Shown: positions 1 to 5,726, counted from the stretch's first letter. The stretch: DNA of 5,726 bases from a virus (IMGVR_UViG_2547132417_000009); one strand, 5' to 3'. Program-made: numbers and translations. The notes: a model not told the origin generated them from the sequence alone.

Positions 1-289
1 TGGCTGGGTGGAAATCGACAACAACATCGCAGAGAACGCCTTACGGGGAGTGGCCGTAGGCCGGAAAAACTGGATGTTCGCGGGTTCCGACAGCGGTGGT
101 GAACATGCGGCGGTGTTGTACTCGTTGATCGGCACATGCCGTCTGAACAATGTGGAGCCAGAAAAGTGGCTGCGTTACGTCATTGAACATATCCAGGACT
201 GGCCGGCAAACCGGGTACGCGATCTGTTGCCCTGGAAAGTTGATCTGAGCTCTCAGTAAATATCAATACGGTTCTGACGAGTCGCTTAC
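1..289 (+). mobile_element. Right end of an IS66-family insertion sequence (3' end of transposase gene plus terminal inverted repeat)
   Basis: The translated C-terminus (..EIDNNIAENALRGVAVGRKNWMFAGSDSGGEHAAVLYSLIGTCRLNNVEPEKWLRYV..LLPW) is the conserved C-terminal signature of IS66-family TnpC transposases. The element ends ..CGCTTAC at 283-289, the reverse complement of the GTAAGCG terminus typical of IS66-family inverted repeats; the same GTAAGCG appears at 5366 as a left end. The exact boundary is uncertain by a few bp. Confidence 0.75.
2..259 (+). CDS. tnpC: IS66-family transposase TnpC, C-terminal fragment (5' end lies outside the window)
   Basis: The open frame runs from the window edge to TAA at 257-259; the Met at 8 in the ORF track is internal, not the real start. 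The translation carries the conserved IS66 TnpC C-terminal motif (NWMFAGS..GGE.AA..YSLIGTC.LN..EP..WL..V...I.......LLPW). Confidence 0.75.
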   Translation, partial: GWVEIDNNIAENALRGVAVGRKNWMFAGSDSGGEHAAVLYSLIGTCRLNNVEPEKWLRYVIEHIQDWPANRVRDLLPWKVDLSSQ

Positions 290-365
290 TAGTGAGTTGT
301 ATCTATTTATTTTCCAATAAATACAATTGGTTATGTGTTTTTAGGTGGGGCGATCGTGAGGCAAA

Positions 366-394
366 GAAAACCCGGCGCTGAGGCCGGGCTTTTA
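366..394. terminator. Bidirectional intrinsic (Rho-independent) terminator downstream of the 345-aa gene
   Basis: GC-rich stem CCCGGC (371-376) / GCCGGG (383-388) with a 6-nt loop. On the minus strand it is followed by TTTTCTTT and on the plus strand by CTTTTA, with an A-run before it. It lies 17 bp beyond the TAA (411-413) of the minus-strand gene. Confidence 0.7.
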
Positions 395-410
395 GGGCGG
401 GTTGATGCTC

Positions 411-1448
411 TTAACACCCTTTAATGGGAGTTGAGATACGAGATATCATTGCTGATTCAATTATCCCACTTCTGACTTTATAGTCACCAAAAAGAGAAAT
501 TGAATCAGAAAGTTTCATGCTTTCATAAAGAAGGTCTGTTTCGTCTTTATCTATAAAATCAGTAACAACATAAGCAGGGAAGGTATAATCAGTGCCAACC
601 TTTTTGCAAGTTACTGTCAGCTTTCCATCTGATTTTTTAATGCCTTCAATTTCAACTTCTTCTGTAAGTTCTTTGTTGGAAAGTTTCTCACGTGGGTTTC
701 TTATCATTTCGGCAATATCACGCTTATCTAATTCGATCTTTGCCATACCATTAAACTCTACTCTGTCAGCATCTGAGACGCCTTTCAACACCCCAACCAC
801 AGCATTTGAAGTATGGGATTGAATTCCCTCTGAAATCTCCCTCGCAGCTGCTGTGGCAGTATGAGCAGAAAGAACTTCAACCATGCCATCTTTAAGCAGT
901 CTCATTTGCTCAGTTTGGCTGTTGGTGTCGTTGAGGCCTTCATCAATCTCAAGTTGCTTCATTTTTTCTATATGGCGATCTTTTTGTCTCGACTTTATCA
1001 GCCAAGCCCCAGTAAGGATCAGCGATATGAGAACGAGACATATAGCTTTCTCTGTTCCAGTCATACCTTGTGTTGACCTCTCAAATGCAACACCAAATGA
1101 ATCAATTACATCCTTTATAGCAACAAGTAGGTCAGTACAGCCAGGCTCAACTTTAAAAATTATCTCAAGCTCTTTTCTATCACTGTCTTTCAAATGCTTG
1201 AGATTATCCGTTCCTCGCCTTACAAGCATAAACGCTTTATAAAGTTCGGTCTGAAACTCGCACATACCTTGAGCTAAAGAGGACGGTATCGTCCCATTAT
1301 ACCGGTCTGGATCACCATAAATCTTGAAACTTACGTGGTTAACAAAATCAATTTTAATGTCATTGATAGATATTTGCTGACCTTTCTGAACTCTTTCTAA
1401 AAACTCTGAAACGTCGCTTAATGATGAGATATCAATTTGATTGTCCAT
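411..1448 (-). CDS. Hypothetical 345-aa single-pass membrane protein in the rexA/rexB position; candidate prophage exclusion or abortive-infection protein
   Basis: Long minus-strand ORF. I place the start at the ATG at 1446-1448 (MDNQIDISS..), 22 nt downstream of the cI stop; the longer 374-aa ORF would overlap cI by 65 nt. Residues ~134-152 (KAICLVLISLILTGAWLIK, nt ~993-1049) form one hydrophobic helix flanked by charged residues; the N-terminal ~130 aa and C-terminal ~190 aa are hydrophilic, with a charged, possibly coiled-coil stretch after the helix. No nuclease, kinase or NTPase motif recognised. It is AT-rich compared with the flanking lambda genes, ends at a strong terminator, and sits downstream of and on the same strand as cI, as rexAB does in lambda. 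Confidence 0.7.
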   Translation of the reverse strand: MDNQIDISSLSDVSEFLERVQKGQQISINDIKIDFVNHVSFKIYGDPDRYNGTIPSSLAQGMCEFQTELYKAFMLVRRGTDNLKHLKDSDRKELEIIFKVEPGCTDLLVAIKDVIDSFGVAFERSTQGMTGTEKAICLVLISLILTGAWLIKSRQKDRHIEKMKQLEIDEGLNDTNSQTEQMRLLKDGMVEVLSAHTATAAAREISEGIQSHTSNAVVGVLKGVSDADRVEFNGMAKIELDKRDIAEMIRNPREKLSNKELTEEVEIEGIKKSDGKLTVTCKKVGTDYTFPAYVVTDFIDKDETDLLYESMKLSDSISLFGDYKVRSGIIESAMISRISTPIKGC

Positions 1449-1470
1449 ATCTTTTCTCAATGTTATTGTG

Positions 1471-2187
<717 letters not shown>

Positions 2188-2190
2188 TTA

Positions 2191-2260
2191 AATCTATCAC
2201 CGCAAGGGATAAATATCTAACACCGTGCGTGTTGACTGTTTTACCTCTAGCGGTGATAAT
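2191..2260. promoter_or_regulatory. Lambda right operator/promoter region: OR3 (2195-2211), OR2 (2218-2234), OR1 (2242-2258); PRM on the minus strand, PR on the plus strand
   Basis: OR3 TATCACCGCAAGGGATA and OR2 TAACACCGTGCGTGTTG match the canonical lambda operators exactly. OR1 reads TACCTCTAGCGGTGATA, one base different from the canonical TACCTCTGGCGGTGATA. PRM -10 TAGATT (revcomp of 2191-2196) and -35 TAGATA (revcomp of 2214-2219). PR -35 TTGACT (2232-2237) and -10 GATAAT (2255-2260). cro Shine-Dalgarno AGGAGG at 2275-2280. Confidence 0.9.
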
Positions 2261-2275
2261 AATTGCATGTACTAA

Positions 2276-2485
<210 letters not shown>

Positions 2486-2492
2486 ATAACAC

Positions 2493-2524
2493 CGCTCTTA
2501 CACATCACAGCCCTGAAAAAGGGC
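2493..2524 (+). promoter_or_regulatory. nutR antitermination site (boxA 2493-2500, boxB hairpin 2510-2524); the Rho-dependent tR1 region follows, up to cII
   Basis: boxA CGCTCTTA and boxB GCCCTGAAAAAGGGC (5-bp stem, A-rich loop) are the canonical lambda nutR elements, located between cro and cII as in lambda. tR1 is inferred from position only; Rho-dependent terminators have no reliable sequence signature. Confidence 0.85.
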
Positions 2525-2584
2525 ATCCAATTAAACCACACCTATGGTGTATGCATTTATTTTCATACATTCAATCAATTGTTA

Positions 2585-2630
2585 TCTAAGGAAATACTTA
2601 CATATGGTTCGTGCAAACAAACGCAACGAG
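2585..2630 (-). promoter_or_regulatory. PRE (promoter for repressor establishment) with CII-binding TTGC-N6-TTGC repeat
   Basis: On the minus strand, 2613-2626 reads TTGCGTTTGTTTGC (TTGC N6 TTGC), the CII recognition motif flanking the PRE -35 region. It overlaps the 5' end of cII on the opposite strand, as in lambda. Confidence 0.8.
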
Positions 2631-2897
2631 GCACTACGAATCGAGAGTGCGTTGCTTAACAAAATCGCAATGCTTGGAACTGAGAAGACAGCGGAAGCTG
2701 TGGGAGTTGATAAGTCGCAGATCAGCAGGTGGAAGAGGGACTGGATTCCAAAGTTCTCAATGCTGCTTGCTGTTCTTGAATGGGGGGTCGTTGACGACGA
2801 CATGGCTCGATTGGCGCGACAAGTTGCTGCGATTCTCACCAATAAAAAACGCCCGGCGGCAACCGAGCGTTCTGAACAAATCCAGATGGAGTTCTGA
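2604..2897 (+). CDS. cII: CII transcriptional activator (97 aa)
   Basis: The translation from the ATG at 2604 (MVRANKRNEALRIESALLNKIAMLGTEKTAEAVGVDKSQISRWKRDWIPKFSMLLAVLEWGVVDDDMARLARQVAAILTNKKRPAATERSEQIQMEF) matches lambda CII. The upstream in-frame ATG at 2544 in the ORF track is an artefactual extension. Confidence 0.95.
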   Translation: MVRANKRNEALRIESALLNKIAMLGTEKTAEAVGVDKSQISRWKRDWIPKFSMLLAVLEWGVVDDDMARLARQVAAILTNKKRPAATERSEQIQMEF

Positions 2898-2919
2898 GGT
2901 CATTACTGGATCTATCAAC
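2843..2919 (-). ncRNA. oop: oop antisense RNA (about 77 nt) overlapping the 3' end of cII
   Basis: Minus-strand intrinsic terminator: stem CGCUCGG / CCGGGCG with loop UUGCCG (plus coordinates 2850-2869), followed by UUUUUUAUU (2841-2849). Its position relative to cII and O matches lambda oop. The 5' end (~2919) is placed by lambda collinearity, not read from a promoter. Confidence 0.6.
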
Positions 2920-2929
2920 AGGAGTCATT

Positions 2930-3829
2930 ATGACAAATACAGCAAAAATACTCAACTTCGGCAGAGGTAACTTTGCCGGACAGGAGCGTAATGTGGCAGA
3001 TCTCGATGATGGTTACGCCAGACTATCAAATATGCTGCTTGAGGCTTATTCGGGCGCAGATCTGACCAAGCGACAGTTTAAAGTGCTGCTTGCCATTCTG
3101 CGTAAAACCTATGGGTGGAATAAACCAATGGACAGAATCACCGATTCTCAACTTAGCGAGATTACAAAGTTACCCGTCAAACGGTGCAATGAAGCCAAGT
3201 TAGAACTCGTCAGAATGAATATTATCAAGCAGCAAGGCGGCATGTTTGGACCAAATAAAAACATCTCAGAATGGTGCATCCCTCAAAACGAGGGAAAATC
3301 CCCTAAAACGAGGGATAAAACATCCCTCAAATTGGGGGATTGCTATCCCTCAAAACAGGGGGACACAAAAGACACTATTACAAAAGAAAAAAGAAAAGAT
3401 TATTCGTCAGAGAATTCTGGCGAATCCTCTGACCAGCCAGAAAACGACCTTTCTGTGGTGAAACCGGATGCTGCAATTCAGAGCGGCAGCAAGTGGGGGA
3501 CAGCAGAAGACCTGACCGCCGCAGAGTGGATGTTTGACATGGTGAAGACTATCGCACCATCAGCCAGAAAACCGAATTTTGCTGGGTGGGCTAACGATAT
3601 CCGCCTGATGCGTGAACGTGACGGACGTAACCACCGCGACATGTGCGTGCTGTTCCGCTGGGCATGCCAGGACAACTTCTGGTCCGGTAACGTGCTGAGC
3701 CCGGCCAAACTCCGCGATAAGTGGACCCAACTCGAAATCAACCGTAACAAGCAACAGGCAGGCGTGACAGCCAGCAAACCAAAACTCGACCTGACAAACA
3801 CAGACTGGATTTACGGGGTGGATCTATGA
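2930..3829 (+). CDS. O: Replication initiator O protein (299 aa)
   Basis: Translation matches lambda O. RBS AGGAG at 2920-2924. The gene contains the ori-lambda iterons. Its stop overlaps the P start codon (ATGA at 3826-3829). Confidence 0.95.
   Translation: MTNTAKILNFGRGNFAGQERNVADLDDGYARLSNMLLEAYSGADLTKRQFKVLLAILRKTYGWNKPMDRITDSQLSEITKLPVKRCNEAKLELVRMNIIKQQGGMFGPNKNISEWCIPQNEGKSPKTRDKTSLKLGDCYPSKQGDTKDTITKEKRKDYSSENSGESSDQPENDLSVVKPDAAIQSGSKWGTAEDLTAAEWMFDMVKTIAPSARKPNFAGWANDIRLMRERDGRNHRDMCVLFRWACQDNFWSGNVLSPAKLRDKWTQLEINRNKQQAGVTASKPKLDLTNTDWIYGVDL
3278..3405. repeat. ori-lambda: four ~18-20 bp iterons (3278-3363) followed by an AT-rich unwinding region (~3376-3405)
   Basis: Four tandem direct repeats, each an internal dyad of the form ATCCCTCAAAACGAGGGA (TCCCTC..GAGGGA), beginning at 3278, 3298, 3322 and 3345. 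They are followed by TATTACAAAAGAAAAAAGAAAAGATTATTCG. The arrangement inside the O coding sequence is the classic lambda origin. Confidence 0.9.
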
Positions 3830-4527
3830 AAAACATCGCCGCACAGATGGTTAACTTTGACCGTGAGCAGATGCGTCGGATCGCCAACAACATGCCGGAA
3901 CAGTACGACGAAAAGCCGCAGGTACAGCAGGTAGCGCAGATCATCAACGGTGTGTTCAGCCAGTTACTGGCAACTTTCCCGGCGAGCCTGGCTAACCGTG
4001 ACCAGAACGAAGTGAACGAAATCCGTCGCCAGTGGGTTCTGGCTTTTCGGGAAAACGGGATCACCACGATGGAACAGGTTAACGCAGGAATGCGCGTAGC
4101 CCGTCGGCAGAATCGACCATTTCTGCCATCACCCGGGCAGTTTGTTGCATGGTGCCGGGAAGAAGCATCCGTTACCGCCGGACTGCCAAACGTCAGCGAG
4201 CTGGTTGATATGGTTTACGAGTATTGCCGGAAGCGAGGCCTGTATCCGGATGCGGAGTCTTATCCGTGGAAATCAAACGCGCACTACTGGCTGGTTACCA
4301 ACCTGTATCAGAACATGCGGGCCAATGCGCTTACTGATGCGGAATTACGCCGTAAGGCCGCAGATGAGCTTGTCCATATGACTGCGAGAATTAACCGTGG
4401 TGAGGCGATCCCTGAACCAGTAAAACAACTTCCTGTCATGGGCGGTAGACCTCTAAATCGTGCACAGGCTCTGGCGAAGATCGCAGAAATCAAAGCTAAG
4501 TTCGGACTGAAAGGAGCAAGTGTATGA
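3826..4527 (+). CDS. P: Replication protein P (DnaB helicase loader, 233 aa)
   Basis: Translation matches lambda P. The start is translationally coupled to O (ATGA overlap) and the stop overlaps the ren start (ATGA at 4524-4527). Confidence 0.95.
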   Translation: MKNIAAQMVNFDREQMRRIANNMPEQYDEKPQVQQVAQIINGVFSQLLATFPASLANRDQNEVNEIRRQWVLAFRENGITTMEQVNAGMRVARRQNRPFLPSPGQFVAWCREEASVTAGLPNVSELVDMVYEYCRKRGLYPDAESYPWKSNAHYWLVTNLYQNMRANALTDAELRRKAADELVHMTARINRGEAIPEPVKQLPVMGGRPLNRAQALAKIAEIKAKFGLKGASV

Positions 4528-4814
4528 CGGGCAAAGAGGCAATTATTCATTACCTGGGGACGCATAATAGCTTCTGTGCGCCGGACGTTGCCGCGCTAAC
4601 AGGCGCAACAGTAACCAGCATAAATCAGGCCGCGGCTAAAATGGCACGGGCAGGTCTTCTGGTTATCGAAGGTAAGGTCTGGCGAACGGTGTATTACCGG
4701 TTTGCTACCAAGGAAGAACGGGAAGGAAAGATGAGCACGAACCTGATTTTTAAGGAGTGTCGCCAGAGTGCCGCGATGAAACGGGTATTGGCAGTATATG
4801 GAGTTAAAAGATGA
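4524..4814 (+). CDS. ren: Ren protein (96 aa)
   Basis: Translation matches lambda Ren; position immediately after P. Confidence 0.9.
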   Translation: MTGKEAIIHYLGTHNSFCAPDVAALTGATVTSINQAAAKMARAGLLVIEGKVWRTVYYRFATKEEREGKMSTNLIFKECRQSAAMKRVLAVYGVKR

Positions 4815-4839
4815 CCATCTACATCACTGAGCTAATAAC

Positions 4840-4871
4840 AGGCCTGCTGGTAATCGCAGGCCTTTTTATTT
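4840..4871 (+). terminator. tR2-type intrinsic terminator between ren and ninB
   Basis: Perfect 8-bp stem AGGCCTGC (4840-4847) / GCAGGCCT (4856-4863) with an 8-nt loop, followed by TTTTATTT. This is the position of lambda tR2. Confidence 0.8.
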
Positions 4872-4887
4872 GGGGGAGAGGGAAGTC

Positions 4888-5328
4888 ATGAAAAAACTAA
4901 CCTTTGAAATTCGATCTCCAGCACATCAGCAAAACGCTATTCACGCGGTACAGCAAATTCTTCCAGACCCAACCAAACCAATCGTAGTAACCATTCAGGA
5001 ACGCAACCGCAGCTTAGACCAGAACCGAAAGCTTTGGGCTTGCCTTGGTGACGTCTCTCGTCAGGTTGAATGGCATGGTCGCTGGCTGGATGCAGAAAGC
5101 TGGAAGTGTGTGTTTACCGCAGCATTAAAGAAGCAGGATGTTGTTCCTAACCTTGCCGGGAATGGCTTTGTGGTAATAGGCCAGTCAACCAGCAGGATGC
5201 GTGTAAACGAATTTGCGGAGCTATTAGAGCTTATACAGGCATTCGGTACAGAGCGTGGCGTTAAGTGGTCAGACGAAGCGCGACTGGCTCTCGAATGGAA
5301 AGCGCGATGGGGAGATCGGGCTGCATGA
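4888..5328 (+). CDS. ninB: NinB (Orf-family recombination mediator, 146 aa)
   Basis: Translation from the ATG at 4888 (MKKLTFEIRSPAHQQNAIHAVQQILPDPTKPIVVTIQERNRSLDQNRKLWACLGD..) matches lambda NinB. A purine-rich RBS (GGGAGAGGGAAG) lies upstream. The ORF-track start at 4870 is a TTG extension. Confidence 0.9.
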   Translation: MKKLTFEIRSPAHQQNAIHAVQQILPDPTKPIVVTIQERNRSLDQNRKLWACLGDVSRQVEWHGRWLDAESWKCVFTAALKKQDVVPNLAGNGFVVIGQSTSRMRVNEFAELLELIQAFGTERGVKWSDEARLALEWKARWGDRAA

Positions 5329-5369
5329 CTATCAAATCAAATACGCCAGCACACGACAAGGACTGGTAA
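5325..5369 (+). pseudogene. 5' remnant (14 codons) of the nin gene following ninB (ninC position), cut by the IS66-family insertion
   Basis: The ATG at 5325 overlaps the ninB stop (ATGA), the usual coupling in the lambda nin region. The frame reads MTIKSNTPAHDKDW and then hits TAA at 5367-5369, which lies inside the IS terminus GTAAGCG (5366-5372). Confidence 0.6.
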
Positions 5370-5726
5370 GCGTAAAGCCAATGCCGTCTGTAACACCTGC
5401 TCCTTGCAGACTAAATTAGAGCTCCTTCTAAATTAGACGGAGTTCTATTGATGGATAAACCTACAGACTGGCGCTCCGGAACCCGCCGGATATTTTCTAA
5501 TGAATTTAAACTTCATATGGTTGAACTGGCTTCGAAACCAAATGCCAATGTTGCACAACTGGCCCGGGAACATGGCGTTGATAACAACCTGATTTTTAAA
5601 TGGCTACGCCTCTGGCAAAGAGAAGGACGTATTTCTCGTAGAATGCCTCCAACTATTGTAGGCCCTACAGTATCACAATCTTTTCCGGCCTCTCCGACTC
5701 TGGTTCCAGTGGAACTTATCGACACC
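5366..5726 (+). mobile_element. Left end of an IS66-family insertion sequence (terminal inverted repeat plus start of tnpA), continuing beyond the window
   Basis: It begins GTAAGCGTAAAGCCAATGCCGTCTGTAACACC. This shares GTAAGCG and scattered downstream positions with the reverse complement of the right end at 261-289 (GTAAGCGACTCGTCAGAACCGTATTGATAT), the imperfect inverted-repeat pattern typical of the IS66 family. It is followed by a tnpA-like ORF. Confidence 0.7.
5451..5726 (+). CDS. tnpA: IS66-family accessory protein TnpA (orfA), N-terminal part; 3' end outside the window
   Basis: The ATG at 5451 has GGAG about 8 nt upstream. The frame stays open to the window end (92 codons: MDKPTDWRSGTRRIFSNEFKLHMVELASKPNANVAQLAREHGVDNNLIFKWLRLWQREG..), which explains its absence from the stop-bounded ORF track. 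It has an HTH-like N-terminus and sits first after the left inverted repeat, as expected for IS66 orfA. Confidence 0.65.
   Translation, partial: MDKPTDWRSGTRRIFSNEFKLHMVELASKPNANVAQLAREHGVDNNLIFKWLRLWQREGRISRRMPPTIVGPTVSQSFPASPTLVPVELIDT

Follow-up and report, generated by a model that had tools for sequence, protein, structure and literature searches.

A single-pass membrane protein family in the rexA-rexB position of a lambda-like prophage, a candidate for single-gene phage defence

Which gene takes over when a lambda-like prophage keeps its repressor but not the two rex genes downstream of it, and does the replacement also act against other phages? The question is raised by IMGVR_UViG_2547132417_000009, a stretch of viral DNA of 5,726 nucleotides (the window, by which we mean the whole stretch analysed), in which a single gene of 345 codons lies directly downstream of cI. 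A first reading made from the nucleotides alone (the sequence-only reading) had described this gene as an uncharacterised replacement of rexA-rexB, encoding a protein that crosses the membrane once and that might serve in exclusion or abortive infection. Our analysis confirmed the observation, and the interpretation is a reasonable although unproven one.

Replacement of rexA-rexB in the repressor operon

The coding sequence occupies positions 411 to 1448 of the minus strand (ATG at 1448, stop codon TAA at 411-413, product MDNQ...KGC), within a frame that is open from 411 to 1535. It is separated from cI by a spacer of 22 nucleotides (1449-1470, minus strand), which carries a weak GAG Shine-Dalgarno motif and is too short for a terminator. 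The cI gene (1471-2184, minus strand) encodes a repressor with HTH_3 and Peptidase_S24 domains and is 96% identical to lambda cI at the DNA level. BLAST comparison with lambda matched window positions 1475-2300 to lambda cI and oR at 96%, and positions 290-388 to lambda 35730-35824, the Timm region directly past the rexB stop, with no lambda counterpart for the intervening positions 389-1474. Given these two matching blocks, the interval replaces lambda 35825-37230, that is rexB, rexA and the rexA-cI spacer. The gene is thus exchanged exactly for rexA-rexB between the cI stop and Timm, with cI and Timm both retained, and its strand, length and distance from cI are those given by the sequence-only reading. 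Its GC content (about 35-44%, versus about 45-57% in the remaining lambda-like DNA) marks it as apparently foreign in origin. The earlier description of the window as lambda-like from cI to ninB held for that stretch (96-98%), with lambda-like DNA limited to positions 290-5365.

Timm is an intrinsic terminator that is also present in lambda (362-388, minus strand; CCCGGC-CTCAGC-GCCGGG followed by TTTTCTTT) and lies 22 nucleotides past the stop of the gene. On the other side of cI, oR3-oR2-oR1 (2191-2258) and pRM (2191-2219, minus strand) were placed by transferring the annotation of phage mEp332 through an ungapped alignment at 99.95%, and in the mEp332 record itself (EF120456.1) the annotation runs from pRM through cI and the gene to Timm. 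Since the gene lies inside the cI operon and Timm has been kept, co-transcription from pRM or pRE is the natural reading, as had been proposed. A crude scan, which also missed pRM and Timm, revealed no promoter-like site between cI and the ATG, with scores no higher than those of shuffled controls. We propose to regard the gene as a moron, an accessory gene carried in the repressor operon of the prophage, which would be transcribed with cI from pRM in a lysogen and from pRE during establishment, the transcript ending at Timm.

In sequence the protein equals mEp33204 from the lambdoid phage mEp332 (100% identity; EF120456.1, "conserved hypothetical", GenBank 2007), a record deposited together with the study of Degnan et al. 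2007 (Mol Microbiol 64:232). RefSeq entry WP_001507092.1 is the same protein, labelled hypothetical, and a 2025 whole-genome record of mEp332 uses the label 'T2SS GspM containing protein', as annotated in PV340541 and PV340549-54 (GenBank 2025). Among 5,426 complete E. coli genomes, about 18 carry near-identical copies. The term 'uncharacterised' is accordingly apt for the function and not for the sequence, and the novelty it implied was overstated: the exchange of rexAB in phages with lambda immunity has been public since 2007, as has the reading frame itself. Literature on the mEp332 gene, PV3405xx, WP_001507092 and PHROG 6191 yielded nothing but a paper on qPCR and the mention of the homologue UTI89_C5141 in a list.

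Family, constraint and predicted architecture

The protein matches PHROG 6191, a family annotated as of unknown function, over its full length (residues 1-344, E 6.3e-116). A HMMER search of 1.8 billion representatives recovered 755 clusters at E<=1e-3 (clustered at 50% identity), nearly all of 310-380 residues and matching end to end. An alignment of 138 relatives, all 138 of which match PHROG 6191, supplied the family profile, the AlphaFold2 input and the conservation figures given below. The family ranges across Enterobacterales, Pasteurellaceae, Vibrionaceae, Shewanella and Pseudoalteromonas; named sources of relatives include Yersinia, Morganella, Avibacterium, Haemophilus, Glaesserella, Gallibacterium, Vibrio, Shewanella and Pseudoalteromonas, and all are called 'hypothetical'. 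Pfam, NCBIfam and PADLOC gave no match for the 345-residue protein, in line with the earlier remark that it shows no Walker, PD-(D/E)xK, HNH, kinase or TIR-like motif; in PADLOC-DB v2.0.0, whose models reach only to systems of 2023, there was none even at E<=10. Sequence comparison with the PDB likewise returned no match that would explain the protein.

Codon comparisons showed strong purifying selection. Nonsynonymous differences were far rarer than synonymous ones between the Yersinia and Pantoea orthologues (pN 0.07 vs pS 0.70) and between the window and Pantoea (pN 0.17 vs pS 0.72), all three differences between the window and E. coli WCHEC040047 were synonymous, and dN/dS was about 0.04-0.08. 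With this low ratio, the 755 relatives of constant length and a confident structure model, the gene is real and under constraint.

With the 138-relative alignment, AlphaFold2 modelled the protein at a pLDDT of 90.8 and a pTM of 0.86 (pLDDT 65 with 8 sequences only). The model begins with an alpha/beta domain (1074-1448, minus strand; model residues 1-125), for which no fold match was found among the top PDB fold-search matches listed. Next comes a single transmembrane helix, placed by hydropathy and model at codons 131-151 (996-1058, minus strand; AICLVLISLILTGAWLI), then a charged helical stalk at codons 152-223 (780-995, minus strand; helices 150-165, 170-194 and 200-223), a small hairpin plus helix at residues 229-250, and a C-terminal barrel at codons 257-339 (432-680, minus strand). 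Confidence is lowest at residues 150-170. The model helix 131-148 coincides with the hydrophobic segment, whose best 19-mer (residues 135-153) has a Kyte-Doolittle hydropathy (KD) of 2.09, compared with a mean of 1.8 in the 138 family members, and a hydrophobic segment occurs in essentially all full-length relatives at about residues 115-160. With one bilayer-length hydrophobic helix kept across the family, the protein is, as judged from sequence, bitopic. The earlier outline of a hydrophilic N-terminal domain, one helix in the membrane and a hydrophilic C-terminal domain with a helical segment was in this way both upheld and refined by the model.

The juxtamembrane motif G-M-(T/S)-G-x-Q-K, in which E may take the place of Q, precedes the transmembrane helix (window positions 1044-1064, codons 129-135); the motif and its methionine, M129, are about 96% conserved among the 138 relatives, and G147 inside the helix is 79% conserved. 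An internal start at Met129, which would give an isoform of transmembrane helix and C-terminal barrel, was considered and is not supported: there is no conserved Shine-Dalgarno motif upstream, and short 'proteins' in the databases that start at this methionine are remnants of pseudogenes, in which stops and frameshifts have decayed the N-terminal domain and the gene caller restarts at this codon (metagenome contigs with P0043).

The C-terminal domain is predicted to adopt an OB-fold, a closed five-stranded beta-barrel (b1-b2-b3, helix 301-313, b4-b5) with the helix between strands 3 and 4. Its structural matches, at only 6-15% sequence identity, include SSB, RPA, PriB, pertussis toxin S4/S5, SilF and YgiW. 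Of the OB-fold proteins that we compared (AsnRS/LysRS N-domains, SSB/RPA/PriB, Stn1/Ten1, B subunits of AB5 toxins, SilF and YgiW), none has the N-terminal domain, transmembrane helix and stalk of the window protein, and their ligand-binding residues are not transferable to it.

Two further resemblances were discarded. A weak match to OAS2 at 'LKGVSDADRV' (E 0.0046), which had hinted at a nucleotidyltransferase of the OAS/cGAS type, appeared with a profile of 8 sequences and was gone with 138; the acidic residues of the GS...[DE]h[DE] motif are not invariant, and the model shows a helix and a beta-hairpin at this place. A MotB-like match (E 0.0045) was confined to the transmembrane helix and charged linker and was treated as compositional.

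Genomic contexts and relation to named systems

Of the 18 independent contexts, 10 have the family member directly downstream of a repressor and on its strand: mEp332 and the window, phi458, PhiR12_2, Yersinia, Pantoea, Raoultella, Arsenophonus, two P2-like prophages, and Morganella, where a DUF3024 gene (PHROG 3467; L009 4566-4907) is inserted between cI and the family member. The repressors of these contexts are mostly not alignable with one another while the genes behind them are related, as illustrated by P0187 and Glaesserella (genes 70% identical, repressors 26% over 38 residues), and the linkage is therefore positional rather than due to co-inheritance. Furthermore, two alleles that are about 18-27% identical occur behind lambda-like cI genes, the mEp332 type and Orf11 of phi458 (OP434518.1, 2357-3403), the latter a full-length member of the family (about 18% identity, hhalign probability 100%). 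In E. coli CFS3246 (L036 3049-5095), a nucleotide-identical copy of the gene follows a cI with a differing N-terminal half and a different cro, which implies a recombination joint inside cI (window position ~1881) and a putative transfer of the gene between immunity types.

Other relatives were found behind the Q antiterminator (Avibacterium), near DinI and tail-fibre genes (Yersinia), at the genome end of Pasteurella phage Pmp14 after a 'polymerase' gene, in Vibrio at the end of a PM2-like prophage, and adjoining an integrase (Xenorhabdus) or a resolvase (Pseudoalteromonas). Some lie beside integrases or resolvases, either in islands with genes for a KAP NTPase and a SNIPE-domain protein or in the vicinity of a TIR protein. 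Of these, SNIPE has been proven to be a defence nuclease bound to the membrane (PMC13190303). In the P2-like prophages, a 131-residue protein (PHROG 3807) and a 74-residue protein with a weak Excalibur match are encoded downstream of the family member (L018 6196-6818). None of the DUF3024, PHROG 3807 and Excalibur-type companion genes is present in the window and, since the family has no conserved partner gene, the protein most likely acts on its own.

The slot behind cI is itself variable. In phages ev099, ev017 and 2G7b/PhiR11_1, which have lambda-like immunity, it is filled by a protein with a NYN domain, a DUF1828 protein or two hypothetical proteins. The interval between cI and N is described as a mosaic hotspot of accessory and defence genes in two articles (PMC8585504 and PMC7067206, citing Degnan 2007), and proven defences have been located downstream of cI in the BTP1 prophage (BstA; PMC8585504) and in a lambdoid prophage (HigBAC; bioRxiv 10.1101/2024.02.24.581848). 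BstA and HigBAC resemble the window gene in this position and in sharing the promoter of the repressor, and both have been demonstrated experimentally to be defences. As described, they differ from the window protein: BstA works where phage DNA is being replicated (PMC8585504), HigBAC is a toxin-antitoxin-chaperone system (bioRxiv 10.1101/2024.02.24.581848), and their descriptions mention no membrane protein. A putative exclusion or defence role, as suggested by the sequence-only reading, fits the context: in lambdoid and P2-like prophages alike the family recurs behind repressors that are unrelated to one another, and RexAB, BstA and HigBAC are further occupants of the slot.

The comparison with RexAB is the closest in position, since the lambda genes occupy the same slot on the cI strand from the cI stop to Timm, are expressed with the repressor, include a membrane component and serve as a prophage accessory function. 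RexA and RexB have 279 and 144 residues, and RexB is a multi-pass protein with four reported transmembrane helices; the system thus consists of two proteins, versus one single-pass protein of 345 residues in the window. The profile of 138 sequences gave hhalign probabilities of 0.6% against lambda RexA and 0.1% against lambda RexB, and no RexA-like fold was found. The suggestion of a one-protein analogue of the RexA sensor and RexB is not supported by these comparisons: similarity to Rex is below 1% in probability, there is one transmembrane helix, and no sensor or channel feature was recognised. The window protein shares with RexAB its slot and probably its role, and it falls outside RexAB and the catalogued defence families.

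SieA of P22 offers a precedent of another kind, being a single inner-membrane protein that is expressed by the prophage, acts alone and blocks DNA delivery (PMC10883804). SieA and the window family are alike in comprising several sequence types with less than 30% identity; SieA differs in its length (164 residues), in having its own promoter in immI and in its lack of a globular OB domain, and the hhalign probability between the two is 0.1%. For SieB of P22 it is 8.5%, below significance and limited to a 26-residue transmembrane segment; the SieB N-terminus has a similar arrangement, 'GMTLKQ' followed by a transmembrane helix. The only named group to which the protein belongs without any difference is its own, PHROG 6191/mEp33204.

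Possible functions, flanking DNA and significance

We propose that the product is a bitopic inner-membrane protein that, working by itself, may counter phages or exclude superinfection. The N-terminal domain would lie in the cytoplasm, and the helical stalk and OB-fold barrel would face the periplasm, from where the protein could obstruct an incoming phage, either at the envelope or during genome entry. Expression in the lysogen, topology, anti-phage activity and the step blocked are all inferred here. An anti-phage role of any kind, which we put slightly short of an even chance, is suggested by the exact cassette exchange, the recurrent linkage to repressors, the diversity of alleles, the defence contexts and the proven defences held by the slot. 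The cytoplasmic placement of the N-terminal domain is the most likely one because the window protein lacks a signal peptide, and net charges within 8 residues of the helix favour the same orientation (N-in) in 83 members, versus C-in in 37.

Several observations weigh against this proposal. The window protein has the segment KSRQKDRH after its helix and a charge of +4 on the C-terminal flank, which by the positive-inside rule speaks for a C-terminus on the inside; across the family the charges close to the helix favour N-in only weakly, and lysine and arginine within 15 residues come to 2.33 on the N side and 2.47 on the C side. The modelled OB-fold would be equally compatible with nucleic-acid binding in the cytoplasm. 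No catalytic or known effector motif was recognised, and the conserved residues (G, L, F, Y, Q, E and K) are mostly structural. PADLOC matches among the 138 relatives were scattered and single, with none consistent, and our literature search found no experiment on the protein or any relative. Lastly, genes in repressor operons are not always defence genes, and RexA itself also modulates the lysis-lysogeny switch, as cited in PMC12315714.

Abortive infection in the manner of Rex would place the OB-fold in the cytoplasm, where it might sense infection through phage DNA or single-stranded DNA, with oligomerisation of the transmembrane helices then collapsing the membrane potential so that the cell dies before phage release. 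The slot shared with rexAB, the other occupants that act in this way (RexAB and BstA; PMC8585504), the flank charges of the window protein, which favour a cytoplasmic C-terminus, the resemblance of the barrel to SSB, RPA and PriB, and the conserved glycine in the helix, suggestive of helix-helix packing, would all be consistent with such a mechanism. However, homology to RexA or RexB is lacking, the C-in orientation requires export of a 130-residue N-terminal domain without a signal peptide, one transmembrane helix makes a weak pore former, and the barrel matches periplasmic or secreted OB proteins (pertussis toxin S4/S5, SilF and YgiW) just as well. We consider abortive infection of this type unlikely, and an entry-blocking mode like that of SieA, with a periplasmic OB domain, somewhat more likely than a Rex-like one with the domain in the cytoplasm. 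A little less likely again is a lysogenic-conversion factor unrelated to phages, which would benefit the lysogen through a change in the physiology of the host envelope, in stress tolerance or in interaction with a host. Positions such as this one are typical of prophage accessory genes generally, no defence model matched, the OB-fold resembles periplasmic proteins that bind sugars or metals, and a fragment at the homologue UTI89_C5141 is listed as induced in bladder cells (PMC5404293), a weak indication. A function tied to the niche of the host is nevertheless hard to reconcile with hosts as diverse as Enterobacterales, Pasteurellaceae, Vibrio, Shewanella and Pseudoalteromonas, and highly divergent alleles in one slot, together with some defence neighbours, are typical of anti-phage genes.

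The protein might also serve the phage itself, by modulating its lysogeny-lysis decision, induction or lysis timing at the membrane. The tight linkage to repressors across phage types could be explained in this way, and the regulatory role of RexA mentioned above provides a precedent; yet lambda, ev099, ev017 and 2G7b carry the same immunity region with unrelated genes in the slot, and the family also occurs behind Q and, outside prophages, beside integrases and resolvases, so that we regard such a life-cycle function as improbable. The GenBank label of 2025 (PV340541 and PV340549-54) would instead make the protein a GspM-like component of a type II secretion system (T2SS). GspM is indeed a bitopic inner-membrane protein, but Pfam T2SSM gave no match at E<=1 for the protein or at E<=0.01 for the 138 relatives, the transmembrane helix of the window protein is central and not N-terminal, and secretion genes are lacking nearby. 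The label could not be reproduced by profile or fold comparison, and we consider it very improbable indeed.

The lambda-like DNA is bounded on both sides by the ends of insertion sequences (IS). Positions 1-289 (plus strand) belong to an ISCro1-like element of the IS66 family, of which they form the right end with the transposase C-terminus (8-259) and a terminal repeat, and meet prophage DNA 121 bp beyond the stop of the gene. Positions 5366-5726 (plus strand) are the left end of an insertion element with an HTH_Tnp_1 orfA and a GTAAGCG terminal repeat, which from this repeat looks IS66-like. The two ends share the GTAAGCG terminus and the same orientation, the right-hand one bounding the segment after ninB. 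The lambda-like segment between them (290-5365, 5.07 kb) comprises Timm, the gene, cI, cro, cII, O, P, ren and ninB, and may represent either what is left of a prophage or a composite unit resembling lambda-dv. The left junction between IS and prophage was found in none of the 5,426 complete E. coli genomes.

The reading frame, the replacement of rexAB (2007) and the hotspot concept are already known, and the value that remains lies in a defined family and a new combination of domains. The interval behind a prophage repressor is among the most strongly expressed sites in a lysogen, and the occupants tested so far, RexAB, BstA and HigBAC, are all phage defences. PHROG 6191 is a sizeable family with no assigned function, a confident model and an architecture that is not in the catalogued defence systems. 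It may represent a new and widespread family of single-gene prophage defences, spanning the membrane between an undescribed N-terminal domain and an OB-fold on the other side, driven by the repressor promoter in lambdoid and P2-like prophages, blocking or sensing phages at the inner membrane, and unrelated to Rex, Sie, BstA and the catalogued systems; we hold this fuller proposal more tentatively than an anti-phage role as such. As a single gene in mEp332, a phage that grows on E. coli K-12, it makes the hypothesis directly testable. If the anti-phage role is true, the family would provide a new mechanism of immunity at the level of the membrane and would help to explain the exchange of cassettes in phages with lambda immunity.
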